Positions 1,394 to 23,788 are shown, numbered from the stretch's first letter. The stretch: DNA of 23,788 nt from Shigella phage fPSFA (OR670332), one strand, 5' to 3'. Translations and numbers: made by a program. The notes: generated by a model from the sequence alone, not told the origin.

Positions 1394-3421
1394 GGATAAG
1401 GTGTAGGTTACGTAAGTCCCGTCTGGTTTCTTGGCGAGGATTCTCAGCACCCCATCACTTCCAAAGAAAAAGCCTATAGATGAGTTATGTTCTAAAGCAC
1501 TTTCTGGTAATTGTAAAGACGCAACAGGTATGCTCATGTGCTTAAAGCCTAAGCGGTTAAGCTGCATCTCACCCACACGCTCCCCTCCCTGGATTGCCGA
1601 AAGCTTGACAATACTAGCTTCATTACCAGGCGATGCTACTTGGCAACTTGCTGTCATAAGTAATGATGGATTTATTGTGCCCCCCATTGCCGGGCGCATA
1701 GCCAGGGTCATGTCGTTATCACCATGCTGTACGTTTATGTTCCCACCCTGAATATCACCAACATACGTACAAAGTATCTTTTTCGTACCAGAACCCGCGC
1801 ACGAAACAGACGATATTTCGGAACCCGGCGCGTATACGGCATACCCTTGTGTAGAGTATGCGTGAATCATCACTCCGCGCAATCTGCTGCCGCCTTCGCA
1901 TGTAAGCTGATTTAGGTTAGTTAAATCCTTGTTTGCACCTATAACTGTTACATTAGTAATATCATTGTTAGTACCCCTGTCGAAAATCCCCTCTTTATGG
2001 GCTTCGTAGGTTACAACATTATCAATGATATTTTTTTGCCCATCCCACCACGCGCCGATACCCATACAGTCACGTGTAATGATATTGCGGATGATGTGCT
2101 GAGTAGGTAAATGGAACCATGGGTACTCAGCAAGAGTGTAATCGTCTACACGTTCGGTTGGCGCCCCCGTGTCAGCATTAACATCAATCCCATCATAATA
2201 ACACTGGATTGTAGTTATATTGTCGAACACCAAACGGTAGTTCCTGGCTGACCGTCCCCCGATTTCATTCTGATATGTCTTAACACCAGATTCGCCAACG
2301 CGATATGATATTAAATCCCTTACCCCTCCATTGTGATCATCACCACCGTCATTTCTGATAAATAAAACTGCAGAACCAGAACCGTATTTTATCTCACCAC
2401 CGACCACCCAGTTACCAGTACCCCATGCGGCTGTTTGATGGTTCTCAAATGTAATACCAGACTCCCAGGCAATAAAATTACGTGGATTTTTTACGAGAAT
2501 ACGATTACAGAGTGTGAACAGATACCCACCAAATGTAGCTTCTGGGTTCTCTACGATGATATTATCGCCGCTCATTATTCGCAAAGTTGCACCAGCAACC
2601 TGATTTTTTACATTATCAGGAAGGTTGGTCCAAATATCTAAATCGTTAACGCTTGGCTTATACCCCTTATCCATCCTTTGGGCTACCGACGCCAGCACCG
2701 TTGATGGGTTAGTCACCCAGTTACCGTTGTCGTCGAATCTATACACCGTGTACGGCGTGGTTTGTGTCTGCATGTGCGGCTGGTTCACAACAGACCCTTC
2801 GCCGAGTTGCTCCCATATTAACATGCCATCACCAATAAACTTCGCTTTACAGTCGATGGTCAGGGTCTTCCCGCCGAAGTTAACGGTCTCATTGTTGCTG
2901 AAGTTGTAATCGCGGTCGATAAGAACACTATCAACAGCGGCATCCGCCAATTGTTGTAACGTAGTAAAGTCAGACAGCTTAACGGAGTACTTAAATTTCT
3001 TATCCGCTTCCGCACGGAAGGTGATGTCCCCAAAAGCTACCCAAGCAGAATCAGAAATGCCACCGGTTGTTAGAGGGGTAGACGCCGCGGGGATAACTTT
3101 CGGCAGGGAGCCACGCCATGCGTAATAATTACCGTCCCCGCCATCTTCTTTCGGCCAAAGAACCGCTTTATTGGCGTCGTTAATTCCCAGGGTTCCGCCG
3201 GTTGTGAAGTTAAAAGACGCCGGAGAGAAACCGGCGTCACGCAAGACCGCGGGCAGCGTCTTCTGCGTCTGCCCGGTTACCTGGTTAGTAGCGTAGTCGA
3301 TATCTGCGCCACCCGCTACACCACCCTGTCTGCCGGTGATCACCTCGGCTTCGAAAATCTGGTGTTTTTTAGCTACCTGTAAATCGTAAAGTGACAATAC
3401 ATCACCGCAACCACTAGACAT
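1391..3421 (-). CDS. tailspike protein, P22-like endorhamnosidase domain with a distinct N-terminal attachment domain
   Basis: From about residue 136 onward the sequence (AEADKKFKYSVKLSDFTTLQQLADAAVDSVLIDRDYNF...TIDCKAKFIGDG) closely parallels the P22 tailspike receptor-binding/catalytic domain (recalled from memory). ATG at 3421 with AGAGGA 7 nt upstream. Confidence 0.9.
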   Translation of the reverse strand: MSSGCGDVLSLYDLQVAKKHQIFEAEVITGRQGGVAGGADIDYATNQVTGQTQKTLPAVLRDAGFSPASFNFTTGGTLGINDANKAVLWPKEDGGDGNYYAWRGSLPKVIPAASTPLTTGGISDSAWVAFGDITFRAEADKKFKYSVKLSDFTTLQQLADAAVDSVLIDRDYNFSNNETVNFGGKTLTIDCKAKFIGDGMLIWEQLGEGSVVNQPHMQTQTTPYTVYRFDDNGNWVTNPSTVLASVAQRMDKGYKPSVNDLDIWTNLPDNVKNQVAGATLRIMSGDNIIVENPEATFGGYLFTLCNRILVKNPRNFIAWESGITFENHQTAAWGTGNWVVGGEIKYGSGSAVLFIRNDGGDDHNGGVRDLISYRVGESGVKTYQNEIGGRSARNYRLVFDNITTIQCYYDGIDVNADTGAPTERVDDYTLAEYPWFHLPTQHIIRNIITRDCMGIGAWWDGQKNIIDNVVTYEAHKEGIFDRGTNNDITNVTVIGANKDLTNLNQLTCEGGSRLRGVMIHAYSTQGYAVYAPGSEISSVSCAGSGTKKILCTYVGDIQGGNINVQHGDNDMTLAMRPAMGGTINPSLLMTASCQVASPGNEASIVKLSAIQGGERVGEMQLNRLGFKHMSIPVASLQLPESALEHNSSIGFFFGSDGVLRILAKKPDGTYVTYTLS

Positions 3422-3433
3422 ATGACTATCCTC

Positions 3434-5992
3434 TTAGTTAAAACCGTTATCGAATCCGCTGGAGAACGCACGACCGAAAGGAGGCACGTTGTCGAACTTA
3501 TAGAAATCCTTGTCATAGTTAAACCCGGTTATTTTGACTGTTCTGTCATCGCCGGGGTCTACCGTAGAAACAAGAATCATCTGAGCATTATGCCTTGCTT
3601 CGTTGCCGAATGAAAATTCAGTTTTCAGGGCGCTATTACCCGTGTAAATGGCTTCCTGCGGTACAGAAGTCATAATCACCTGCCTGTCGTGCGCTCCAGG
3701 GACTACATTAACACTTTGCACGCCGCCGTCACGTAACTTGAGAATCAAAGAATGGTCATCTCCCGAGGTGAACTTAACTGGTTGTGACAGTTCTACGGTG
3801 AGCCCGTTTACCGCGGTTACGTAGCCGTCGTAGGTCGCCATACGTGAACCCTTAACCACACTAATGGCACGATTCGGAAGGGCAAAAATACCCTCTTCAG
3901 TGGCGGTAAACGACACCGAAATTTTCTTTAAAATGTTCTTCTGGTGGCGACGGTTTGCCGCCCAGAAAGCCTGCTTATAGTTGCGGATTCCTTTTGAGTC
4001 GTAAGTCTCCGTTTTAAGGCCCCCGGTTTCGGGTATGGTTATAGTCTCTTTGACGTTCGTCTTAGGGTCTATGTACGAGAATTTAAGGCTGTCAAAAACC
4101 TGAGCATCGTTAAAGGTTCTGGTCCATTTTTCGGAAGTACCAGCCTTGCTTCGGTGGGTGAACACCATCTCAGGGCCCATGCGAGGGCGTTCAAAATCGA
4201 GAAGGATATCCGCCCCACGCCTATATGGAGTACAGAAGATAGCGTCGGCTATAGTACTAACTATATCCTGCATAGTGGTTTTATAGTCATCAAACGTGTA
4301 ACAAAATTCTCCGGCCTGTTTGTCGCCAAAATACGCTTCGACCTCGTTCTGCACGGCAAGTAACTTATCCATGTTGCGTACTGTCAGGTTTAAACCGCCC
4401 ACATCTGGGTCACGCGCCAGGCGGATGAGGGATTGTACAGCCTGTGTATTAGGTGTCATCGTATCTTCGAAAACACCGTTACCGAGGTATTTGTACACCA
4501 TTTCAGTAGCAATCATACGCAACTGCGGTTGCTTTACTTCCGCAGCACGGGGGGTCTGCTTGCGCATCGAGTGTACTGTTGTTCTGTTGCCGTAGTGTGG
4601 GGTGTTGTCACGTGTTTGCCCGTATAAGTTAACGTACGTTATCTCATCGACTACAGACCCCTCGAAATTAAAGTCCAGGTCTGTTACCCTTCTGGCGCGC
4701 ACCCGCACCCGTGACACAACCGGCAGGTCGGCGTAAATAGTGACGCCGTTGTAGTCCGGTGTACGCCCGGACACAGTTCCTTGCGCAGTATATATCGGTC
4801 CGTAAGGAGTGCTGTTTTCATCGAGCAATTGATACTGTATTTCGGCGGTTACAGACGCCAGTGTTTTCGATTTGCCGTTGTCTTTATACATGCCGTTCGC
4901 GGCGGCGATATTGGCGACTATACGCTCAACCTCGGTACGGTTTATTGAAACCCAATCGGTTAATGTTTTCTCATACGTGTTGTCTGGTTGCAGCGAGGCC
5001 TCTCCATCACCGCGGAAAAATGAACCGGGTCTTATTTCTTGCCACCGCCCGATAAGGCCGCCAGGCACGATAAAGGTAACGGCCCCTTCGGATACGCTTA
5101 ACACCTGATACCCACCGCCGGATAGGTCGACGTCCGTATTTGTCCACGCTGACACCAGCGAAAATGTATCATTAGGCACCAGTACCCCAGAAAAATCCGA
5201 ACCACCTGTTGGGTCATATATCGTGCCAATGTTTCCGGACAAAGACGGATACCCGGACATGTAAGAGAAAGAAATGCCCAGGCCGTTGGGTGCTTTCAGA
5301 ACCACGCCGTCTACTTCGTTAGATTCTACGGTGATATACAGGCCCTGCTCTATGGGGTCTCCGACCATGACCTGGGGTGTCGATGTGTTATTGGGTGATG
5401 TATATGGTGCGTACACGGCAACCGACGTACCTGTTATATCCGATACACGGGTATCCCCGTCCGTTATACCTTCCGGGTGTATGTCGAGGTAGCCGCGCCC
5501 GGCGTCGTAATAACCGTACTCTACAATTTTACCGGCGGCGTTAAACACCTTATAAGTAGTCATAAGGTTATTAGGGATGGTTTGCACCGTCCCGCAGATG
5601 TCATAACTGCGCTCGTAAGGGCGTGCCTTGTTGTTACGGTCGGTGAGACTGTTGTTCGGGGAATCCGCCTGCGAGTTCGCCAGGTTAGAGGACGCCCCTT
5701 TCACGGATGGTGATAGTAGTTTCGCTAGCGGTTTAAGGATAACGCTAAAAATCTTCATGACGCCTTTAATAGCGCCACCACCGGCAGATTCCACAATGTG
5801 GAAAGTCGCGTTTTCTTTCAGTGCTTCGAAGTCTTCTGTTACATCGTTATCTTCTCCGATTTCGTCGATGAAAACGCGAACCGGCACCCCATCGGGAACG
5901 TGGTTCACGACGAAGTTCATCGGATTATCGCGATATCGTTTAACGTCAAATGTGCCGTCTTCGTTACGGGTATAGTGGATTACTAGCGCCAA
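3434..5992 (-). CDS. tail tip / host specificity protein (lambda J-like central fibre), 852 aa
   Basis: Large ORF immediately downstream of the M/L/K-like genes and upstream of the tailspike. Apparent TTG start at 5992 with GGAG 8 nt upstream; first ATG is at residue 25. Call is by size and position. Confidence 0.55.
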   Translation of the reverse strand: MALVIHYTRNEDGTFDVKRYRDNPMNFVVNHVPDGVPVRVFIDEIGEDNDVTEDFEALKENATFHIVESAGGGAIKGVMKIFSVILKPLAKLLSPSVKGASSNLANSQADSPNNSLTDRNNKARPYERSYDICGTVQTIPNNLMTTYKVFNAAGKIVEYGYYDAGRGYLDIHPEGITDGDTRVSDITGTSVAVYAPYTSPNNTSTPQVMVGDPIEQGLYITVESNEVDGVVLKAPNGLGISFSYMSGYPSLSGNIGTIYDPTGGSDFSGVLVPNDTFSLVSAWTNTDVDLSGGGYQVLSVSEGAVTFIVPGGLIGRWQEIRPGSFFRGDGEASLQPDNTYEKTLTDWVSINRTEVERIVANIAAANGMYKDNGKSKTLASVTAEIQYQLLDENSTPYGPIYTAQGTVSGRTPDYNGVTIYADLPVVSRVRVRARRVTDLDFNFEGSVVDEITYVNLYGQTRDNTPHYGNRTTVHSMRKQTPRAAEVKQPQLRMIATEMVYKYLGNGVFEDTMTPNTQAVQSLIRLARDPDVGGLNLTVRNMDKLLAVQNEVEAYFGDKQAGEFCYTFDDYKTTMQDIVSTIADAIFCTPYRRGADILLDFERPRMGPEMVFTHRSKAGTSEKWTRTFNDAQVFDSLKFSYIDPKTNVKETITIPETGGLKTETYDSKGIRNYKQAFWAANRRHQKNILKKISVSFTATEEGIFALPNRAISVVKGSRMATYDGYVTAVNGLTVELSQPVKFTSGDDHSLILKLRDGGVQSVNVVPGAHDRQVIMTSVPQEAIYTGNSALKTEFSFGNEARHNAQMILVSTVDPGDDRTVKITGFNYDKDFYKFDNVPPFGRAFSSGFDNGFN

Positions 5993-10439: not shown

Positions 10440-10546
10440 AATAATATCCTTTGGTTAGTCGGTTACAGGTTGGATAGTTGCGTCAGGCGGGAACCACCCG
10501 CTTTTCCGGTGCGACCGTAGACGCTAAATAAGAATAGCAAAATAGC

Positions 10547-10575
10547 TTGCGCAACCGTTAATAGTGTCCTATTAT
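10547..10575 (+). promoter_or_regulatory. putative sigma70-type promoter for the plus-strand accessory module
   Basis: TTGCGC (10547-10552), 17-nt spacer, TATTAT (10570-10575), about 40 nt upstream of the AAGAGG RBS of the 10617 gene. Located in a divergent intergenic region. Confidence 0.4.
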
Positions 10576-10616
10576 CCTACACATCAACAATACATTGTTT
10601 AGTTAAAGAGGTTGCT

Positions 10617-12849: not shown

Positions 12850-12876
12850 AAGGCCCCGAAAGGGGCCTTTTTCTTA
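12850..12876. terminator. bidirectional intrinsic terminator between accessory module and major tail gene
   Basis: AAGGCCCC-GAAA-GGGGCCTT followed by TTTCTT on the plus strand, and a U-rich run on the minus strand as well. The 20-mer core is identical to the one at 1360-1379. Confidence 0.65.
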
Positions 12877-14857: not shown

Positions 14858-15213
14858 TTTCTCACCTGAATAAAGTATGCCACAACATCATCGTTAACCA
14901 TCTTCTTCTCAATAGCAACTACAGACCATTGTTCACCGCTAAACCGCACCTTGTCATCCATCTTCGGCACCACACTGTAATCCGCTTTAACCATCATGTC
15001 GCCCGCCTGTATAGTAGTTCCGTTCACGAGCCCTGCATTAACGGGTACAGGAACCGCTTTAAGAGGGAGTACGACGTCAGGCCCCCACACGTACTCCCCT
15101 AAAACAGGGTCCCATGTTTTCTGGCCTTTGCGCACCAAAGTTACCGTGCTGCCGTATTTTGATAGTAGGCGAGTACCTACCCCTTGCATCCGTTTACTAA
15201 AAGCGGTGCTCAT
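14854..15213 (-). CDS. head-tail joining / head completion protein
   Basis: 119-aa ORF in the connector gene run, with overlapping start and stop codons on both sides. Confidence 0.45.
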   Translation of the reverse strand: MSTAFSKRMQGVGTRLLSKYGSTVTLVRKGQKTWDPVLGEYVWGPDVVLPLKAVPVPVNAGLVNGTTIQAGDMMVKADYSVVPKMDDKVRFSGEQWSVVAIEKKMVNDDVVAYFIQVRK

Positions 15214-15820: not shown

Positions 15821-16330
15821 TTAACCCCGGAAAACATTAAAGGAGTAGGCATTATTGTTCCCGCATAAGAGGGGGCGTAACGCGTCATCGGCGGCCGTGA
15901 TACTCACGGTCCCGCCTGAATAGCCGTTCTTAAAGTAGGACACGGTCACCGCACCCTCAACTCGTTCGGTCTGCACCTCGCGCCCGTCAGTGGACCCGCG
16001 AACGTCGGTGCCCGCGCCGTATTCAACCGCGGCCATTACCTGCGCCTGAACAACTAACGGCGGGATAACGTTAGACGGCTGAGGGAACCCATGCAGGGTA
16101 ACGCCAGTTCGGGGGTACGCCAGTGCCTGGTTTGCGGATACACGGCGGCCGCACATCTGAGATTCAAAAAGCCCAACGTATACCGCGCCGTTGCGTAGCG
16201 CCGCTTCGGCCTTAGCATTATCTTCCGGCAGTTCAAGACCATACTTAGCGGCCAGCGCGCGTCCGTCTTCCAGGCTGACGTAAGAGTCGGCATTTGGGAG
16301 GCCTTGCCCCGTTTCCACGATAAGCGGCAT
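15821..16330 (-). CDS. hypothetical structural protein, possible head-tail connector/adaptor
   Basis: 169-aa ORF with GAGGAA 6 nt upstream of the ATG. Call is by position after the capsid genes only. Confidence 0.4.
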   Translation of the reverse strand: MPLIVETGQGLPNADSYVSLEDGRALAAKYGLELPEDNAKAEAALRNGAVYVGLFESQMCGRRVSANQALAYPRTGVTLHGFPQPSNVIPPLVVQAQVMAAVEYGAGTDVRGSTDGREVQTERVEGAVTVSYFKNGYSGGTVSITAADDALRPLLCGNNNAYSFNVFRG

Positions 16331-16333
16331 AAA

Positions 16334-16522
16334 TTATTCCTCTACGCTTTTGCGGCGACGACGTTGCTTAGGCTCCCCACCACCGTTGTAATGTGGTTCT
16401 TCTGCGACCGGTTGAGTCTCGATTAATGCACCCCGGTTAGCTTCTTCGCGCATCGGGACTAACTGCCCGTCAACCTTGACCACACCCTTGTATTGTTCCC
16501 GTACTACGTAATTATCTGTCAT
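16334..16522 (-). CDS. small hypothetical protein (62 aa)
   Basis: ORF fills the gap between flanking genes and has an AAGGA-like RBS. Confidence 0.4.
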   Translation of the reverse strand: MTDNYVVREQYKGVVKVDGQLVPMREEANRGALIETQPVAEEPHYNGGGEPKQRRRRKSVEE

Positions 16523-17205: not shown

Positions 17206-17265
17206 TATATAGCCTCCGTATAAATGAAAAGAGGGACCGAAGTCCCTCAAGAGTATACCCTACGA

Positions 17266-18315
17266 TTAAGCACCGACGCCAGTTACCAGGAACGCAATCG
17301 GCACATGCTTACGGTCGACTACACGGTTCCAGTTAGCGGCGTTAGCAAGGTCTTGCCAGCTAGCGGAGCGGGCAATAGTCTCGGTGCCGTTGCCGGTGAT
17401 TACGGCGCTGGTGAAACTGTAACCGAACGGGTGTAGCAACCAGGTCTTACGAGTCCACAGCGTTTCTACACCACCGCCGTTAGCGCGAGATGCTTCACGC
17501 TCGTATTCCAACGGCATCACGGGGTTTCCTTCGCCGTAGCCGATTGCGCCCTGGCCAAAGATGATGGAGATGAACTTGCGCTGCGCACCCTGGCCTACTA
17601 CGGTCATGCTGTCGTCGACGATGACGCGATAGCCCTGGTAGGTGGCGAACATGGTGTCGTTCTCGGCATCACGGATGAAGTCGATAAGCTGGGCTTTACG
17701 GGCCTGTGCGTATACGAAGCTGTGCATTGCGATAGCGCCGAGAACCTCACCGCCGTTACCCATCAATGAGTCACCCATAGTCTGAGTAGCATCAATGAAA
17801 GCGCCGGCGTCGAAACCCAGGGTAGCGGAAACGTCCACCACCATGTCGTTCTGCTCGTGATACGCATCAGTAGCGGACACGTTGTCGTTGTACAGACCGA
17901 GGGCAGTTGCGATAAGACGACGCTGCGCCTGACGCTGCCAGAAGTTATCCAGACGAGACGCTACGGACTGCAACGGATTCTGGCTGGTCAATTCGACGGT
18001 AAGGTCCGCCTGACCAAAGCCTTCGTTCAGGTAGGCAACACGGGCCATCATTTCACCAGTCTGAATAGCGCGCGGAGTAGCGATATCCTGATACACATCG
18101 TTCGAATAGTTAGGTTCGATAGAGGTATCGATAGCTTTCCAGAACGGCAGGTTAGCAATGTTTGACGGACCGTTAGCAATCTCAGCCGCATACGGGGTAG
18201 GGGTGAGGATACCGGAGTCAAAAAACGCGGTTTTCTCTACCGGGTCTTCGGTCATATAAGACGCCAGTACAGGGATGTTGCCGGTTACGATATCGCCAAT
18301 AGTGGTAATTGCCAT
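17266..18315 (-). CDS. major capsid protein (HK97-fold type)
   Basis: 349 aa, directly downstream of the scaffold-like gene, with GAGGAAA 6 nt upstream of the ATG. Size, composition and position are typical of siphovirus major capsid proteins. Confidence 0.8.
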   Translation of the reverse strand: MAITTIGDIVTGNIPVLASYMTEDPVEKTAFFDSGILTPTPYAAEIANGPSNIANLPFWKAIDTSIEPNYSNDVYQDIATPRAIQTGEMMARVAYLNEGFGQADLTVELTSQNPLQSVASRLDNFWQRQAQRRLIATALGLYNDNVSATDAYHEQNDMVVDVSATLGFDAGAFIDATQTMGDSLMGNGGEVLGAIAMHSFVYAQARKAQLIDFIRDAENDTMFATYQGYRVIVDDSMTVVGQGAQRKFISIIFGQGAIGYGEGNPVMPLEYEREASRANGGGVETLWTRKTWLLHPFGYSFTSAVITGNGTETIARSASWQDLANAANWNRVVDRKHVPIAFLVTGVGA

Positions 18316-18318
18316 TAT

Positions 18319-19020
18319 TTATTTCCTCAGGGCTTTAAGTTGCCGTTCAAATTCGGCAGGGTTAGATTTATAGAGCGCTAAACGCTCGCTTTCACTCATG
18401 TCTTTAAACGCTGGTGCGGCCCCGCCGCCTTTATTCCCGGAAGCCCCGCCACCGGAAGCCGCATTTGCTTTAATCAAATGTGAAAAAGCTTTATGTTCGC
18501 GCAGGTATTTGCGGAACTGCTCAGGGTCGGTAGTAACAACATTGCCATCCGCACCCATGAATTTAGTCACTACGTCTTCACCGTCGAACTCGGTCTTGAC
18601 GAAAGGTGCCAGGATTTCTACCGCTTCTGGGGTGATAAAATCACCAGCGAAAGAACCTAAAACAGCCTTACGTTCGCTGCCAAGAATACGCGCAGCTAAA
18701 GATGCGTAACGCTCTTCTTTCTCTTTCAGTACAGGTTCATACTGACTACGAATCGTCTTTTCAAATTCGTCCATTTTACCGGCAGCCTTCAACGCTTCCT
18801 GGTGGGCACGCTGCCGTTCTTCTTCGGCTTCTTTAGCACGGCGTGCAGCTTCCTTTTTCTCGCTAAGTAGCGCTTCCTGGTTTGCCTTAAGCCCGGCAAC
18901 TTCTTTCTCAATCAGGGCCTGCACTTCTTCGGCGGTGTACATTTTTGGCACGTCACCTGCGCCCGGTTTATCTTCCACCCCGGCTTCTTCATGAAGCGGG
19001 TAACGTAAAAAACGATTCAT
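18319..19020 (-). CDS. capsid scaffolding protein
   Basis: Highly charged helical/coiled-coil sequence (EKKEAARRAKEAEEERQRAHQEALKAAGK...) immediately upstream of the capsid gene. ATG at 19020; the ORF track uses TTG at 19026. Confidence 0.65.
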   Translation of the reverse strand: MNRFLRYPLHEEAGVEDKPGAGDVPKMYTAEEVQALIEKEVAGLKANQEALLSEKKEAARRAKEAEEERQRAHQEALKAAGKMDEFEKTIRSQYEPVLKEKEERYASLAARILGSERKAVLGSFAGDFITPEAVEILAPFVKTEFDGEDVVTKFMGADGNVVTTDPEQFRKYLREHKAFSHLIKANAASGGGASGNKGGGAAPAFKDMSESERLALYKSNPAEFERQLKALRK

Positions 19021-19104
19021 AGTCAATATGTCCCCTGGACTTTAGGACACCGGGCCCCCCGGTGTTTCTGTAACAAGAATAAATTATTCCACTTACTAAG
19101 GCAA

Positions 19105-19386
19105 CTATTCCAGAATATTCCTTATGTATCCCTGTAACCGGAATACTTTCAGACGCAATTGCCGTGTGCACTCCGCGTTCTGCACATCGACGGCCAGGTC
19201 TTCATCGACATCACTACTCGGTAGCACCATTTTGCACGGTGGCTGCATCAACGTCGTATCCGGGGATGGAATTAGCATTCTCGGCGGCGCGTCGTTTGAT
19301 TGACACCCGTTCAGGAGGAAACTCACAGACAGTACGGCCAGGACGGGTAACGTATTTGATAACTTCACGGGTGATAGACTCCGCAT
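19105..19386 (-). CDS. o-spanin (Rz1-like outer-membrane lipoprotein)
   Basis: Signal peptide ending in the lipobox-like LLNGC, followed by a proline-rich segment (PPRMLIPSPDTTLMQPPC). It starts inside the Rz-like gene in the +1 frame and extends past its end. Confidence 0.6.
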   Translation of the reverse strand: MRSLSPVKLSNTLPVLAVLSVSFLLNGCQSNDAPPRMLIPSPDTTLMQPPCKMVLPSSDVDEDLAVDVQNAECTRQLRLKVFRLQGYIRNILE

Positions 19387-19600
19387 TTTCTTTACCTTCC
19401 GATTCGGCGGCGGCGGCTTGTGTATCGTCTTGCTGCTGCCGTTGTGTTTTCTTCGCTAGCTCGGCCTGTGCTTTCTGCTGTTGCTGCGAAACAAGATTCG
19501 CCCGGCCTTCCACCCACCCGCTTCTGTAGTTGTACTGGCCGTATAACCACAAAGAGAGGATACCGACTGCCGTGGCTACTGCGGTTACTTTCCAATTCAT
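19214..19600 (-). CDS. i-spanin (Rz-like inner-membrane protein)
   Basis: N-terminal transmembrane segment (VTAVATAVGILSLWLY) followed by a Gln/Ala-rich coiled coil. Overlapped by the lipoprotein ORF. Confidence 0.65.
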   Translation of the reverse strand: MNWKVTAVATAVGILSLWLYGQYNYRSGWVEGRANLVSQQQQKAQAELAKKTQRQQQDDTQAAAAESEGKENAESITREVIKYVTRPGRTVCEFPPERVSIKRRAAENANSIPGYDVDAATVQNGATE

Positions 19601-19894
19601 AGTATCCCCTTTCTTTATACGCTAAGCCCGACGTAAGTCGGGCGTTAAACTCGTATATCTGTAAACCTCATACGGCGAATCTTAGCTAAATACTGAAAGC
19701 AATATAGCTTGGCCCTTCCGAATGCGTTCGCGGTTACGCTAGGGCGTTGTGACGCCCGCTTCACGCGACCCGCACCGCGGTACGCTGAAAGCGTAGTTAG
19801 CGTAGCATTTAAAATAATAGAAATCTACTTTCTGAATAAAGTATTCCTTAATTTACATTGGCAAGGAATAATTGGAATAATTGAGGGCAAAATT

Positions 19895-19918
19895 AAGGCC
19901 CCTTGAAGGGGCCTTTCG
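19895..19918. terminator. intrinsic terminator after the Ig-like protein gene
   Basis: AAGGCCCC-TTGAA-GGGGCCTT with U-rich flanks on both strands. Confidence 0.55.
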
Positions 19919-20377
19919 TTACTTAGGTTCTGAGACCTTAGCTGCTTTGCTAACCACCGACACACCGTCGGCATCTACTGCCTTGACGAAATATTCTCCG
20001 GGGTCTTTAACGGTTAGTTCCCCTTCAACGTAAGGAACGTTGATTACCTCTTTACCATCTTTAAACCATTGCAAATCGTAGGGCGCTTTGCCACCTTTCA
20101 CGACAACGGTTAATTTTGCGGAACCATCCTTCAGTTGCACATCCGCCGGTTGCACATCGAAGTACACATCACCGGCCCCATCCAGATAAGGTACTTCGTA
20201 CAGGATGCCGTCCGAGATTGTAGCCAGTCCGGTCTTATCCGCAAACGGCATTTCGTCCACCGATTCACCGAGAACCGATTCATCTTTGATATACACGACA
20301 CCTTCACCGGCACCAGACACACGGGAGTACTGAACTACACGTCGTGAAGGCACATCTTTAACTTTGAAAAAGCCCAT
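19919..20377 (-). CDS. Ig-like domain protein (152 aa)
   Basis: C-terminal Ig-like segment YDLQWFKDGKEV...PGEYFVKAVDADG. AGAGGA 6 nt upstream of the ATG; directly follows the head morphogenesis gene. Confidence 0.6.
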   Translation of the reverse strand: MGFFKVKDVPSRRVVQYSRVSGAGEGVVYIKDESVLGESVDEMPFADKTGLATISDGILYEVPYLDGAGDVYFDVQPADVQLKDGSAKLTVVVKGGKAPYDLQWFKDGKEVINVPYVEGELTVKDPGEYFVKAVDADGVSVVSKAAKVSEPK

Positions 20378-20379
20378 CT

Positions 20380-22239
20380 CTATTCCTCTTTCAGATAATC
20401 GGCAACACGCTTATCGAGTTCCGCCATCTCTTTAAGAGTTAACGGACGCCCGAATCCGTCTACCGATATTACACGAAATTCTTCCGGGGTTATCCCACTA
20501 TTACGAAAAATCTTACCCCGAACAGGGCCGAGGGCTTCGTCCTGAAACCACGCCGGTTGCTGCTTGAGGAATTCGTAGTAGGTCGTGTCGGCGCTTACCT
20601 GCTGACCTCCATCTGCACCCCTGGCCGCCCGTTTCGCGCCCTTATCAAGGAAGTCAAATTCGGAACTAATTACCGGAGCGGTTGTTGAGCGACAGTTATG
20701 TGCTATAATTCCATTTGCAAGATACCAGTTCTGTTCATTTTCGAGGTTATAAACATGCCCGCAAAAATCAGCTTCACTAAAGACCAAATCGACAACATCA
20801 TCAAGCTCTACACCGACGGCGTCGGACCAGTTGAAATCGGAAAGATTATCGGCGTTTCGTGTAGCCCAGTCATACGCGTTCTCAGAGAGAACGGCGTTAC
20901 TATTCGCGGAGGCAGCGACGCTATGTTTATCAGAATGGCTAAAGCTACCCCCGAGGAGCGCCTCGCGCTCTCCGCCGCAGCGCATGAAGCCGCCCGAGGG
21001 AGAAAGGCCGACCATGCCGAACTGCTTCGCAGGGCCAAAGCCAGGGAGGGGGGCATCAACGCTGGCAGCCACTGGGAGTTCCTTGTCAACGATTTGCTTA
21101 TTCAGTCTGGACTTGACTTTATCCCAGGAAAGGCTGTCGACAAGTACAATCTCGACTTCGCCGTCGGTTCCGTCGCCGTGGAAGTCTTCGGGGGAGGTTG
21201 GGCTTGTACTGACCGCCGCCGGATTGGCCGCTACATTAGCCGCACTAAACAAATCGGAGAACTTGGCTACAACGTTGTGTTCCTTATGCTTGAGAGAGAG
21301 CGTAGCGTCCTTAGCGCACACGAGCTTGTCACCTACATTGAGAAGGCCAGAAGCAACCCAACCACTGGTAGTCAATACTTGGTGATTTGGGGTGATAGAC
21401 AAGGTGCGACCGGACTTTGTAGAGACATAGACTATAGTGCCTTTGTACGCCCTTTTAAAAATGTTAGAAACAGGGCTACCGGTAGATACTACAGTGTCCC
21501 CAAGTAAACAATTAGGATGGGCCGGCGGCAGCGGCCCTTTTCCTATTTCGTACTGCATAGAATCGCGCGACCGGCAAACAGCCGAAGTACGGGAATCAAG
21601 GGTAGATACCCACTCATATTTCGTGATGATATCGTCGTTCTGAGCGTAAACCTGTTGCCGTGCTTCGTTGGATACGTGCGCCAGCGCTGTCCGGATAACG
21701 GTTGCAGCGTTACGCTCGGAGATATCGGCCAGACCACCGGGCCCAACAACGTTCTTAACTATCTGCCGCGTGGTCATACCCTGTACGAACCCAGACTTAA
21801 CCCCCATCACCAGGCGATTCACCTCGGTTTGCCGCCAGCCATTCATTAGCGAAACAAAATCAACCGGTTTTTCGCTTAGTTCAAGTGGCGCGAAAGTCGC
21901 AGCGGCCCACACCTGCTCCGCAGCCGGTGTTACAAAGTTAGCATTAACGTTGGTCGACAATGTTTTTACATTCCAGTTAACCTCATAGTCGGAAAGCTCA
22001 CGGGCGTCGGCCAGTAGCTTCTCATACCACCCGGACGTAATTCCGTTCAGTGCTTGCTCAAGTTCCCGCAGCATGATGGTGAGTCTCGCTGCCGTTCTGC
22101 TGTCATCGCCAAACAGCAGCACCTGTCGCTTAACCTCATCACGCATTTGCGAGATAAATGGTGCCAGGTCTTTTACTTCGCTACTGGCGTTACGTTGCAG
22201 CAATATCTGGTGGCTGATAATCGATTCTAAAAGACTCAT
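20380..22239 (-). CDS. head morphogenesis protein (SPP1 gp7 / Mu F-like), intein-containing precursor
   Basis: N-extein ends ...TLDSRTSAVCRSRDSMQYEIGKGPLPPAHPN and the C-extein begins CRSTT, which restores the family's HPNC-type motif after excision of 272 aa. AGGAGG RBS upstream. Confidence 0.75.
   Translation of the reverse strand: MSLLESIISHQILLQRNASSEVKDLAPFISQMRDEVKRQVLLFGDDSRTAARLTIMLRELEQALNGITSGWYEKLLADARELSDYEVNWNVKTLSTNVNANFVTPAAEQVWAAATFAPLELSEKPVDFVSLMNGWRQTEVNRLVMGVKSGFVQGMTTRQIVKNVVGPGGLADISERNAATVIRTALAHVSNEARQQVYAQNDDIITKYEWVSTLDSRTSAVCRSRDSMQYEIGKGPLPPAHPNCLLGDTVVSTGSPVSNIFKRAYKGTIVYVSTKSGRTLSITPNHQVLTTSGWVASGLLNVGDKLVCAKDATLSLKHKEHNVVAKFSDLFSAANVAANPAAVSTSPTSPEDFHGDGTDGEVEIVLVDSLSWDKVKSRLNKQIVDKELPVAASVDAPLPGFGPAKQFGMVGLSPSGGFMRCGGEREALLGGSFSHSDKHSVAASANSNAVLSENAYDWATRNADNLSDFNWSDAVGVELDDVVDLVFSEADFCGHVYNLENEQNWYLANGIIAHNCRSTTAPVISSEFDFLDKGAKRAARGADGGQQVSADTTYYEFLKQQPAWFQDEALGPVRGKIFRNSGITPEEFRVISVDGFGRPLTLKEMAELDKRVADYLKEE
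20682..20709 (+). promoter_or_regulatory. putative extended -10 promoter for the antisense intein-nested gene
   Basis: TGcTATAAT at 20701-20709, with TTGTTG at 20682-20687 and a 16-nt spacer. Confidence 0.45.
20695..21510 (-). mobile_element. intein (Hint domain) inserted in the head morphogenesis protein
   Basis: Block A CLLGDTVV at the N-terminus, block B SITPNHQVLT, and C-terminal blocks VYNLENEQNWYLANGIIAHN followed by a +1 Cys. In frame with the host gene. Confidence 0.75.
20755..21507 (+). CDS. HTH + DUF559/Vsr-like (PD-(D/E)xK fold) endonuclease-like protein, encoded antisense within the intein
   Basis: ATG at 20755 with GAGG 8 nt upstream. N-terminal HTH (DQIDNIIKLYTDGVGPVEIGKIIGVSCSPVIRVLRENGV). 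DUF559-like core YNLDFAVGSVAVEVFGGGW...TDRRRIGRY...LGYNVVFL. Translation verified by hand. Confidence 0.65.
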   Translation: MPAKISFTKDQIDNIIKLYTDGVGPVEIGKIIGVSCSPVIRVLRENGVTIRGGSDAMFIRMAKATPEERLALSAAAHEAARGRKADHAELLRRAKAREGGINAGSHWEFLVNDLLIQSGLDFIPGKAVDKYNLDFAVGSVAVEVFGGGWACTDRRRIGRYISRTKQIGELGYNVVFLMLERERSVLSAHELVTYIEKARSNPTTGSQYLVIWGDRQGATGLCRDIDYSAFVRPFKNVRNRATGRYYSVPK

Positions 22240-22341: not shown

Positions 22342-22710
22342 ATGGGTATGTATACGAAGTTATGGTTTGATGCTGACTTAAAACATAACGTAGATGAAAT
22401 TAACCTGCGCGCATTGGAGTACCTATTTGTCGGTGGTGACGTCCCTGATGTATTACCGTGCCACCCATTTTTCACACTAGAAAGATGGTCGTACATGTTT
22501 TATTCCCCTGCGTACTCGGGAGATGCCGTCACGGTTAAACTTGGCGATTACTACAACCATGTATCGGCGCATATAGAGGTTAAAAATTACTGCGGCGAGA
22601 TAGAGAGTTTCCTTGATTGGGTACGACCACTCTTGGACGTGGAGAAGGGGACTTGCATAGGGTGGAAATGGTATGAAGGAGACGATAACCCAATCCTGAT
22701 ATACGCGTAA
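22342..22710 (+). CDS. hypothetical protein (122 aa, aromatic-rich), moron between portal and head morphogenesis genes
   Basis: ORF occupies a gap with no minus-strand gene. AGGAGA RBS 7 nt upstream and a terminator directly downstream. Confidence 0.55.
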   Translation: MGMYTKLWFDADLKHNVDEINLRALEYLFVGGDVPDVLPCHPFFTLERWSYMFYSPAYSGDAVTVKLGDYYNHVSAHIEVKNYCGEIESFLDWVRPLLDVEKGTCIGWKWYEGDDNPILIYA

Positions 22711-22719
22711 CGAGACAGA

Positions 22720-22745
22720 AAGGCCCCGTTATGGGGCCTTTATGT
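22720..22745. terminator. bidirectional intrinsic terminator between moron and portal gene
   Basis: AAGGCCCC-GTTAT-GGGGCCTT followed by TATGTTT; lies between convergent stops at 22710 and 22746. Confidence 0.55.
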
Positions 22746-23788
22746 TTACTGTTCAGGTTGTTGCGCCGATTGAGGGATTTCCCCCTGAACTTCAGTAGCG
22801 ACCGGTAATGGCTGGTCCGCTACCGCGTCCTTAATATCGGCATCTGTCCAGTCGGTTACGCCAGCTTTACGCAACGCGGCATAGTAGGCCGTAACGGGCA
22901 GAAATCCTGCATTAATATCCGCCATCCAGGCGGCCCTGTCTTGTGCGGTCATAGGTTCCAGGAAGAAGTCCATATTAAGGCGGAATTCTACCTCGGTATC
23001 TTCCGGTTTGCCCAACATTACAGCCACCCAACGTAAGGCGTCCGTATAGGCCTGGCTTACGTTACGCGCAATTGTCGCCATGACGGACGTATCGGCACCG
23101 CGCTGTATTCGGGCGGATTGTGCGGTGATTTGCTGAGTGGGGGTGATAAGCTGCGCACCAATCTGGATAGCTTGCTGTTCTTTGTCCAGCATATTCTGGC
23201 GGGCAAGGTTGTTCTCGCCTGCCTGGATAAGCTGAGCGCTACCGCCATATCCCAGGTTATGCCCACACCGACTACCAAATTTGATACCGTTAGGGTTCGC
23301 TTCCTTGAATGATTGAGGTGTTAAGTTCTCGCCTGGGTAGATAAACAGGGTCGGCTGCCCAACAACGAAGCTGGATTCTTCGTTGTCCGCGCTGTTCCTG
23401 TAGTGCCCGATGTTAAGTTCCGCGAGTGGTAGTAGCGGAGCGTCGTCAATGGTGGCGTCGTTATTGGTCGCCCCAATAAAGGTAAACGGAATTACCCCTC
23501 GTAATGATTCTCCTAAGTCCGGGTAAATCTCCACAACGTCTTCCTGCGCACCACCTTCGGCATCGAAACGAAAAAGACGTTGACGGTAGTTGCCGTCGCT
23601 ATCGATGTCCAGAACGCGATACTGTTCGCCGTATTTAGTTTCGAACTCGTTTCCCGGTTCGTTGTACTCCCATGTCTCGCGCAGCACAACCATAGTTACC
23701 CGGTTTACAGAACCTACGCGCGTGAGTCGCCAGTTAACGATATTCTCGGTAGTGTAGAAAGCGATTGTAGGGTTAAGCAAACCTGCGT
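22746..23788 (-). CDS. portal protein, C-terminal part (5' end outside window)
   Basis: Frame is open to the window edge. The gene sits immediately upstream of the head morphogenesis gene, as in SPP1-type head modules, and has an acidic, Gln-rich C-terminal tail. Call is by position. Confidence 0.5.
   Translation of the reverse strand, partial: AGLLNPTIAFYTTENIVNWRLTRVGSVNRVTMVVLRETWEYNEPGNEFETKYGEQYRVLDIDSDGNYRQRLFRFDAEGGAQEDVVEIYPDLGESLRGVIPFTFIGATNNDATIDDAPLLPLAELNIGHYRNSADNEESSFVVGQPTLFIYPGENLTPQSFKEANPNGIKFGSRCGHNLGYGGSAQLIQAGENNLARQNMLDKEQQAIQIGAQLITPTQQITAQSARIQRGADTSVMATIARNVSQAYTDALRWVAVMLGKPEDTEVEFRLNMDFFLEPMTAQDRAAWMADINAGFLPVTAYYAALRKAGVTDWTDADIKDAVADQPLPVATEVQGEIPQSAQQPEQ

Follow-up and report, generated by a model that had tools for sequence, protein, structure and literature searches.

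We analyzed a 23,788-nucleotide stretch of the genome of Shigella phage fPSFA (OR670332; hereafter the window, numbered from its first letter), in which a 318-base gap at 19601-19918 separates a Hoc-like head decoration gene from the Rz/Rz1 spanin genes. This gap is probably a junction of two minus-strand transcription units, composed of a terminator, a regulated promoter, and a cis-acting leader RNA that we term R1. Judged by sequence comparison, R1 is an undescribed conserved leader RNA that is common to Jerseyvirus and Kagunavirus and lies outside Rfam. As a transcription-unit boundary the region is of an ordinary kind, yet it holds both this covariation-supported RNA and an operator-like array that is likewise undescribed. 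A first-pass annotation of the window had singled out the gap as its longest non-coding stretch, and it is indeed the longest interval free of open reading frames (ORFs) between credible genes, the runner-up measuring ~177 nt (10440-10616). That annotation overlooked the terminator inverted repeat, the operator-like repeats, and the minus-strand orientation.

The genes around the gap, which form the head module, all lie on the minus strand; the gap is therefore read from right to left, and its relevant RNA is that of the minus strand. Viral contigs, metagenomes, and annotated phages supplied Hoc-to-Rz junctions and regions upstream of Rz, which we compared, and from 26 distinct Jersey and Kaguna leaders we built a covariance model of R1. 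The model gives a single match in the window (19797-19691, minus strand; 77.7 bits, E = 2.8e-18) and a single match in the genome of Salmonella phage SGPC, even with filters off. Its minimum-free-energy and centroid folds coincide. The fold comprises a short hairpin, P1, which accounts for the inverted repeat TACGC-TGAAA-GCGTA already noticed at 19781-19795, and P2-P4, a 22-bp irregular hairpin with internal loops; the GC-rich repeats previously described as nested belong to this single extended hairpin, at ~19718-19780.

The helices of R1 are supported by covariation. In a model-based alignment of 34 distinct sequences, pairing is retained in 92.9% of cells (30-43% in slid controls), 13 of 29 pairs are altered on both sides, and the covariation score of 0.338, compared with 0.128 for shuffles, is reached by 0 of 500 shuffles. 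The upper helices vary in sequence while their pairing is kept: P4 occurs in five unrelated pairing sequences (GGGCGU/ACGCCC, GGGAC/GUCC, GGUGC/GCAC, GUGCC/GGCAC, and CACGUC/GACGUG), and the third pair of P2b is C-G, U-A, or A-U. Invariant are the base of P2 (CCG/CGG, the bulged C, and the tandem G-U pairs) and the single-stranded AAGGGCC. We relied on the model-based alignment because RNAalifold, run on a plain MAFFT alignment of Jersey and Kaguna leaders, misaligned the inner helices and so gave a poor consensus. Conserved G-U pairs in the helices indicate that the structure resides in the minus-strand RNA; the plus-strand fold of the region is ill-defined (z = -0.37). Conservation extends to the entire gap, which is kept at 90-100% identity in 265 Jerseyvirus records.

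The same G-U pairs, which would be mismatches in DNA, together with G-U intermediates in the helices, favor an RNA structure over a DNA one and argue against a DNA-level function of the inverted repeats and the AT-rich tract, whether as a replication origin or as the pac/cos packaging site listed among the candidate roles in the first-pass annotation. The AT-rich segment is real (GC 0.23-0.32 at 19780-19899), and short repeats in AT-rich DNA beside GC-rich inverted repeats bear a superficial likeness to origins and packaging sites. However, the repeats stand at fixed distances from conserved -35 and -10 elements, and cumulative GC skew does not turn at the gap. Sites of the pac type usually lie near the small terminase gene, and here the terminase genes are ~4.6-6.4 kb away. 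Moreover, Jerseyviruses package by the headful mechanism with permuted ends, and so have no cos site (PMC10783031, PMC9409062). We consider a DNA-level role very unlikely.

A coding role for the gap is just as improbable. Two frames come into question, a 39-aa minus-strand ORF (19764-19645, GTG start) and a 65-aa plus-strand ORF (19709-19906); the former is annotated in PVP-SE2, Shelanagig, and S4lw and is open in the 13 distinct Jerseyvirus sequences examined, and the latter is annotated in SGPC. These annotations contradict each other. The 18 variable sites of the 39-aa frame fall evenly on the codon positions (6/6/6) and comprise 12 non-synonymous and 6 synonymous changes; the frame has no Pfam match, overlaps the covarying helices of R1, and is lost in Kagunavirus leaders, which differ by insertions and deletions. 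In 11 of 13 distinct relatives, the plus-strand frame has lost its start and is interrupted by a frameshift or by stops. We conclude that the small ORFs annotated here in some GenBank records are spurious, as is the tRNA-Ser discussed below.

R1 matches none of the RNA families or host sequences with which we compared it. Rfam 15 has no family match in the window at gathering thresholds, hits at E up to 10 on 19560-19960 are at chance level (<=19 bits) and fall mostly on the terminator hairpin, and the homologous region of phage SGP007 has no Rfam match. When bacterial genomes were scanned for the R1 core GCRTTCGGAAGGGCC, only chance hits in GC-rich unrelated genomes appeared. A blastn search with the leader against 5,426 E. 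coli genomes gave no match, and thus no host homologue, target, or prophage copy. R1 is unlikely to be a riboswitch, because its internal loops differ between lineages. By inspection, R1 offers no convincing alternative pairing with the hairpin that precedes Rz, which makes a classical attenuator switch unlikely.

Kagunavirus genomes carry R1 twice. A scan with the conserved core located two copies of the core promoter plus R1 on the same strand, ~10.7 kb apart (Table 1), and a second copy is also present in L431 and in the contig pairs L427/L461, L475/L418, L482/L417, and L433/L473. The second copy lies in a divergent early control region, opposite a small helix-turn-helix gene, and heads a leftward operon of small genes. 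Within one genome, the likeness of the two copies begins exactly at the -35 element and ends ~115 nt into the RNA, indicating that core promoter and R1 form one reusable unit. The TTATTCC/GGAATA array occurs only at the copy before Rz, and the operator repeats are a separate add-on that presumably sets timing. Each copy has, 58-63 nt downstream, a hairpin flagged as terminator-like.

The predicted start of the new transcript follows a candidate core promoter with features expected of an extended -10, sigma-70-type promoter: TGn joined to TAnnnT (19799-19827), with a -35-like hexamer 17 nt upstream. It stands in register with TTGACT-17-TGcTAAGCT in Kagunavirus and TGaTAACCT in the L201 type, and this agreement of -35, 17-nt spacer, TGn, and -10 across three phage lineages lends comparative support to the late promoter that the first-pass annotation had suggested. 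In the PVP-SE2 record, too, a predicted promoter lies within this AT-rich segment. As a separate observation, CTACGCT occurs twice on the minus strand, 9 nt apart (19790-19805), once in the -10 region and once in the 5' arm of P1, with CTAAGCT/CTGAGCT as the Kagunavirus analogue; such a -10-like repeat near the start could mark a second start site or a pause signal.

Upstream of the core promoter, at about -88 to -42 relative to the predicted start, lies an array of operator-like repeats, conserved across three lineages (Jersey, Kaguna, and L201-type). The 42-kb SGPC genome contains only two perfect copies of its palindrome, one in the gap and one upstream of the scaffold gene. Near-matches in the window at 16327-16340 and 14868-14881 proved to be ribosome-binding or coding sequence, and the operator pattern TATTCCARTTATTCC gave mostly chance hits, in AT-rich contigs, when viral contigs were searched for it. 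We also set aside a plus-strand promoter-like hit at 19852-19881, which is built from the operator repeats and points antisense into Hoc, straight at the hairpin.

The palindrome before the scaffold gene, GGAATAATTTATTC (19090-19077), overlaps a second candidate regulated promoter, and the hairpin ACACCGGG/CCCGGTGT (19065-19047) comes next; this arrangement of promoter, palindrome, and hairpin is conserved in the same three lineages. Rz/Rz1 and scaffold/capsid may therefore be under separate promoters that answer to the same regulator. The repeats could bind an activator, given that the -35 element in the window is weak. They could instead bind a repressor, since the same core promoter presumably works without the repeats at the Kagunavirus early locus and since the palindrome overlaps the -10 element of the candidate scaffold promoter.

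On the other side of the array, a perfect 10-nt inverted repeat, AAGGCCCCTT/AAGGGGCCTT (19895-19915), directly follows the Hoc stop codon. The stem predicted at 19915-19888 (-16.3 kcal/mol, z = -3.0; tail UUAAUUUUG) combines a GC-rich stem-loop, a U-rich tail, a position at a gene end, and conservation, as expected of a Rho-independent terminator. Relatives keep its stem invariant and vary its loop, the Kaguna-type relative L017 has a different GC hairpin with U5 in its place, and the PVP-SE2 record annotates a terminator here. Our simple scan missed the element because it counts A-U pairs into the stem, which leaves only 4 T in the 8-nt tail window. Hairpins of the type AAGGCCCC-loop-GGGGCCTT are found three times at transcription-unit boundaries in the window (12850-12869, 19895-19915, and 22719-22741), the first of which scores as a terminator on both strands.

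The same hairpin explains the plus-strand tRNA-Ser (~19870-19948) annotated in SGP007, SGP009, horsemountain, demigod, and ER22. ARAGORN does call a tRNA-Ser(tga) at the homologous place in SGP007 (L001 1971-2049), but the call is made of the terminator hairpin plus the last 30 nt of the Hoc gene; neither the window nor SGPC yields a tRNA with ARAGORN, and the tRNA model of Rfam is silent at E up to 10 in both the gap region and SGP007. We regard the annotation as an ARAGORN false positive and give a tRNA at this position almost no credence.

Downstream of R1, a linker with two short conserved blocks leads, after ~48 nt, to a GC hairpin just before Rz, which corresponds to the perfect 7-bp stem with a 4-nt loop recognized in the first-pass annotation (19626-19643). 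Relatives carry compensatory variants of it (GCCCGGC/GCCGGGC, GCCCCGC/GCGGGGC, and GCCCTGC/GCAGGGC), and only 1 of 23 positions between the hairpin and the start of Rz (19623-19601) varies within Jerseyvirus. The Kagunavirus counterpart ends in a U-rich tail and scores as terminator-like.

This layout of promoter, structured RNA, and GC hairpin resembles a small-RNA gene, a role that had also been proposed for the gap; promoter, R1, and the hairpin at 19643-19626 would then form a stand-alone gene for a trans-acting RNA of ~150-170 nt, with Rz expressed by read-through. The terminator-like hairpin of Kagunavirus and the presence of two copies per Kagunavirus genome fit such a gene. In the window, however, the tail UUAGCGUAU is not terminator-like, and the hairpin lacks a U-tract and can be extended by pairing with its own flanks; the Rz ribosome-binding site follows after 15 nt, with neither a gap nor a promoter in between. 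The leader also matches no E. coli genome, leaving no obvious host target or mimic, and we found no candidate seed region. A small-RNA gene is possible but improbable in this phage.

Table 1. Features of the fPSFA gap, its flanking genes, and related sites (window coordinates unless a genome is named)
Feature	Position	Strand	Description
Gap	19601-19918		318 bases between the Hoc-like gene and the Rz/Rz1 spanin genes
Predicted intrinsic terminator	19888-19915	-	Stem AAGGCCCCU/AGGGGCCUU, tail AAUUUUG
Hypervariable spacer, 12 nt	19882-19893	-	7/12 positions vary within Jerseyvirus
Operator-like array	19834-19880	-	TTATTCC at 19880-19874 and 19871-19865; palindrome GGAATAC-TTTATTC at 19847-19834
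Candidate core promoter	19799-19827	-	-35 TAGATT 19827-19822; 17-nt spacer ending TGc (TG 19807-19806); -10 TACGCT 19804-19799
R1 leader module, ~105 nt	19691-19797	-	Covariance model; predicted start ~19794-19791
R1 P1 hairpin	19795-19781	-	TACGC-TGAAA-GCGTA region, at predicted 5' end
R1 P2a, CCG/CGG	19780-19778 with 19720-19718	-	Predicted fold
R1 P2b, GGUGCG/CGCAUU	19776-19771 with 19726-19721	-	Two G-U pairs; bulged C between P2a and P2b
R1 P3	19768-19764 with 19732-19728	-	Predicted fold
R1 P4	19759-19738	-	Predicted fold; loop CACA
R1 single-stranded AAGGGCC	19717-19711	-	Conserved
Linker	19644-19690	-	Short conserved blocks UAUUGCUU and AGAUUCGCCGU; Jersey/Kaguna leader alignment
GC hairpin GCCCGAC-UUAC-GUCGGGC	19626-19643	-	15 nt upstream of the Rz ribosome-binding site; z = -3.45
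Rz ribosome-binding site AGGGGA and ATG	19610-19605; 19600-19598	-	Read from sequence
Second candidate regulated promoter, before scaffold gene	19047-19104	-	TTGCCT 19104-19099, 17 nt, TATTCT 19081-19076
Portal	22746-23780	-	Gene-family match
Head morphogenesis	20380-22239	-	Gene-family match
Hoc-like head decoration gene	19919-20377	-	Last of upstream unit; PHROG phrog_3945, E = 2.4e-87
Rz-like i-spanin	19214-19600	-	Opens downstream unit; PHROG phrog_2536, 5.7e-57
o-spanin embedded with Rz-like gene	19105-19386	-	Downstream unit; PHROG phrog_5672, 1.5e-30
Scaffold	18319-19026	-	Gene-family match
Major capsid	17266-18315	-	Gene-family match
Classical intrinsic terminator	17223-17248	-	Directly 3' of major capsid gene; GAGGGACTTCGGTCCCTC then TTTTCATTTA
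Two R1 copies in Kagunavirus L470	12231-12351 and 1524-1642	-	R1 matches

The anatomy of the gap, its conservation, the covariation, the duplication, and the lack of coding signal are observed; from them we infer the functions in the following model. The intrinsic terminator would close the unit that ends with the portal, head-morphogenesis, and Hoc genes, and the operator-flanked promoter, with its weak -35 and extended -10, would start a unit running from Rz/Rz1 through scaffold to major capsid. The first ~105 nt of the new transcript would fold as R1, where a factor would dock and act in cis on the RNA that carries it; RNA polymerase or a bound factor would be modified there in the manner of nut or put sites. 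Transcription modified in this way would pass the following hairpin and run on through the long structural-gene operon, and the 5' hairpin would additionally shield the RNA end. The 3' end of the unit starting in the gap is probably the terminator past the capsid gene.

As the mechanism of R1 itself, nut/put-like control of transcript elongation is our preference, a tentative one short of even confidence. R1 is the first thing transcribed, its invariant parts resemble a docking site rather than a simple stabilizer, and in Kagunavirus it heads two different long operons with terminator-like hairpins after it. The early-left leader of SGPC, likewise, holds a flagged terminator ahead of its first gene. 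Long untranslated leaders and the strong terminator before the tail genes would also benefit from a modified polymerase: that terminator, past the capsid gene, precedes ~16 kb of same-strand tail genes in which promoter-like hits are not above chance. In its fullest form the proposal is conceivable rather than probable: R1 would be a previously undescribed phage RNA family for elongation control, recognized through the P2 base and AAGGGCC and enabling passage of the next terminator, in the structural operon of Jerseyvirus and Kagunavirus and also in the leftward early operon of Kagunavirus, with late timing set by a protein on the GGAATA-N-TTTATTC/TTATTCC array.

Alternatively, R1 and the pre-Rz hairpin might serve RNA stability or processing only, the 5' hairpin blocking 5'-end-dependent decay and the 22-bp hairpin acting as an RNase III site or barrier; we hold this possible, and nearly as probable as elongation control. 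In every lineage, and likewise at the candidate scaffold promoter, a hairpin lies within a few nt of the predicted start, and protection of 5' ends by stem-loops is a well-established mechanism. RNase III substrates fall in a size class of ~22 bp, which the P2-P4 stack with its internal loops matches. A purely stabilizing role also fits the window itself better, where the downstream hairpin is not terminator-like. Nevertheless, a stabilizer would need P1 alone, and the invariant P2 base, the tandem G-U pairs, the single-stranded AAGGGCC, and the terminator-like hairpins after both Kagunavirus copies would be left unexplained. The processing or stability element that the first-pass annotation had proposed thus stands insofar as a covariation-supported structured leader is present, and its function can be put forward only as plausible.

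Like 5'-terminal stabilizer stem-loops such as that of the ompA 5' untranslated region, the leader has a hairpin at or near its predicted 5' end in all lineages, but R1 is much larger and includes sequence-invariant parts that a simple stabilizer would not need. T7 RNase III sites such as R1.1 are likewise ~22-bp irregular hairpins with internal loops in non-coding stretches between phage genes; those sites, however, are internal to polycistronic transcripts, and R1 comes after a terminator and a promoter.

Among elements that govern elongation, the nutL and nutR sites of lambda (N-dependent antitermination) share with R1 a short cis-acting RNA just after a promoter, with a hairpin and with terminators downstream, and a place at the heads of two long operons, in the case of R1 in Kagunavirus. 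R1 is nonetheless not a nut site of the lambda type: its apical loop differs between lineages (CACA, GUAA, AUUA, and UCGA), whereas the boxB loop is the determinant of N binding, and its conserved part is instead the helix base with AAGGGCC. We identified no N-like protein for phages with R1, but made no search for one.

The putL and putR sites of HK022, which mediate factor-independent antitermination through the beta' zinc-binding domain of RNA polymerase, resemble R1 in having two adjacent stem-loops, 1-2 nt apart, in a cis position downstream of promoters (from which R1 would act), and in occurring as two copies per genome at operon heads. R1 differs in beginning at the very 5' end of the transcript. 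The put-like layout is present in that P1 and P2-P4 are adjacent, with terminator-like hairpins after them in Kagunavirus but not clearly in the window. By sequence and structure, R1 is not homologous to put.

The late leader of lambda (PR', 6S RNA, and tR'; Q-dependent) offers a third parallel, with a late promoter, an untranslated leader of ~190 nt, a hairpin, lysis genes (here Rz/Rz1), and head genes. Here, however, a Q-binding element is not recognizable, the window hairpin has no U-tract, and holin and endolysin are located elsewhere in the genome. No Q-like gene was identified, and no search was made for one.

Several observations weigh against the model. The promoter hexamers in the window are weak, each matching consensus at 3 of 6 positions (6 of 12, plus TG), and for this reason a simple promoter scan left 19799-19827 unflagged. 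Usual spacing would put the start at 19793-19791, inside the 5' arm of P1, which would shorten P1 in this phage. Secondary-structure predictions are mixed: P1 and the pre-Rz hairpin beat shuffles (z = -5.1 and -3.45), but the main R1 hairpin does not (-30.8 kcal/mol, z = -1.27, equaled by 22 of 200 shuffles), and since this energy is unexceptional for a GC-rich sequence, the case for the hairpin depends on covariation. The covariation itself comes from few clades with frequent recombination and from an alignment fitted to the model, so the counts overstate the number of independent events.

Further points concern elongation control. The pre-Rz hairpin of the window has only two U past its stem, in the tail given above, and is unflagged as a terminator; at this hairpin of the window, antitermination may have no target. 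Inspection of the R1 leader revealed no boxA-like block, the nearest sequence being UAUUGCUU. Searched against the entire HK022 genome with filters off, the R1 model had no match in the put regions; its best match is non-significant (11.8 bits, E = 0.42; L489 36890-36965). The L142/ZS-type and Otaku/L194-type leaders are different and have no obvious terminators. Finally, literature searches on Jerseyvirus, Kagunavirus, and Guernseyvirinae turned up neither transcript, promoter, or RNA-seq data nor, for the two genera, any account of gene regulation. The HK022 match at 36890-36965, which is probably due to chance, lies just downstream of Q, between Q and the holin gene.

Leaders in other lineages extend the picture. 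The R1 model detects the L201/L269 type weakly (15.5 and 11.7 bits) and does not detect the more distant leaders of the L142/ZS and Otaku/L194 types. Upstream of Rz, these distant Guernseyvirinae (ZS type: L142, L196, L261, L263, L276, and L284; Otaku type: L141 and L194) have other structured leaders. Among these is a hairpin of three tiers closed by a GUAA loop; its arms differ between sequences yet pair (GUCGC..GGGAC..GCC GUAA GGC..GUCCC..GCGA versus GACGC..GGGGC..), and the motif ACGGCA(A/G)CAAUG recurs among them. Corresponding to the leader with the second Kagunavirus copy, SGPC has a non-coding early-left leader of ~600 nt (L292 25310-25948, minus strand), with a -35 close to consensus (TTGACA), several hairpins, and, before the first gene, a flagged terminator at 25603-25583. 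The block ACAACGGCAACGTAACTATT...CTATTCACTTATCGAAA is common to Jersey and Kaguna early leaders.

The window belongs to a Jerseyvirus, judging from sequence identity: over 701 bases around the gap it shares 99.9% identity with Salmonella phages SGPC and PK2 and 90-98% with hundreds of Jerseyvirus records. Members of the genera Jerseyvirus and Kagunavirus rank with the phages most frequently isolated and proposed for biocontrol and therapy of Salmonella and E. coli, and the gap provides a concrete, testable map of where their structural-gene transcript may start. R1 is a new conserved RNA motif suited to Rfam, and the array is a candidate operator for a regulator. Should R1 prove to control elongation, the very short list of such RNAs (nut, put, and EAR-like elements) would gain a new type. 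The spurious ORFs and the false tRNA-Ser have propagated in GenBank records and can be corrected.

The hypervariable spacer between terminator and operator (19882-19893) is an insertion hot spot in relatives, which carry 0.6-1.6 kb extra there. L015 and L016 have ~600 extra bp (2960-3640) with a reverse-strand 141-aa ORF, for which a Pfam search with the L015 copy gave no match, and L018 and L020 have 1-1.6 kb of extra genes. The spacer is thus a natural insertion site that tolerates extra genes in relatives, and is useful for phage engineering. Elsewhere in the window, a 122-aa plus-strand ORF (22342-22710), for which Pfam gives no match, is flanked by the portal and head-morphogenesis genes, which lie on the opposite strand; a terminator-like hairpin comes after the ORF, which looks like an inserted gene.

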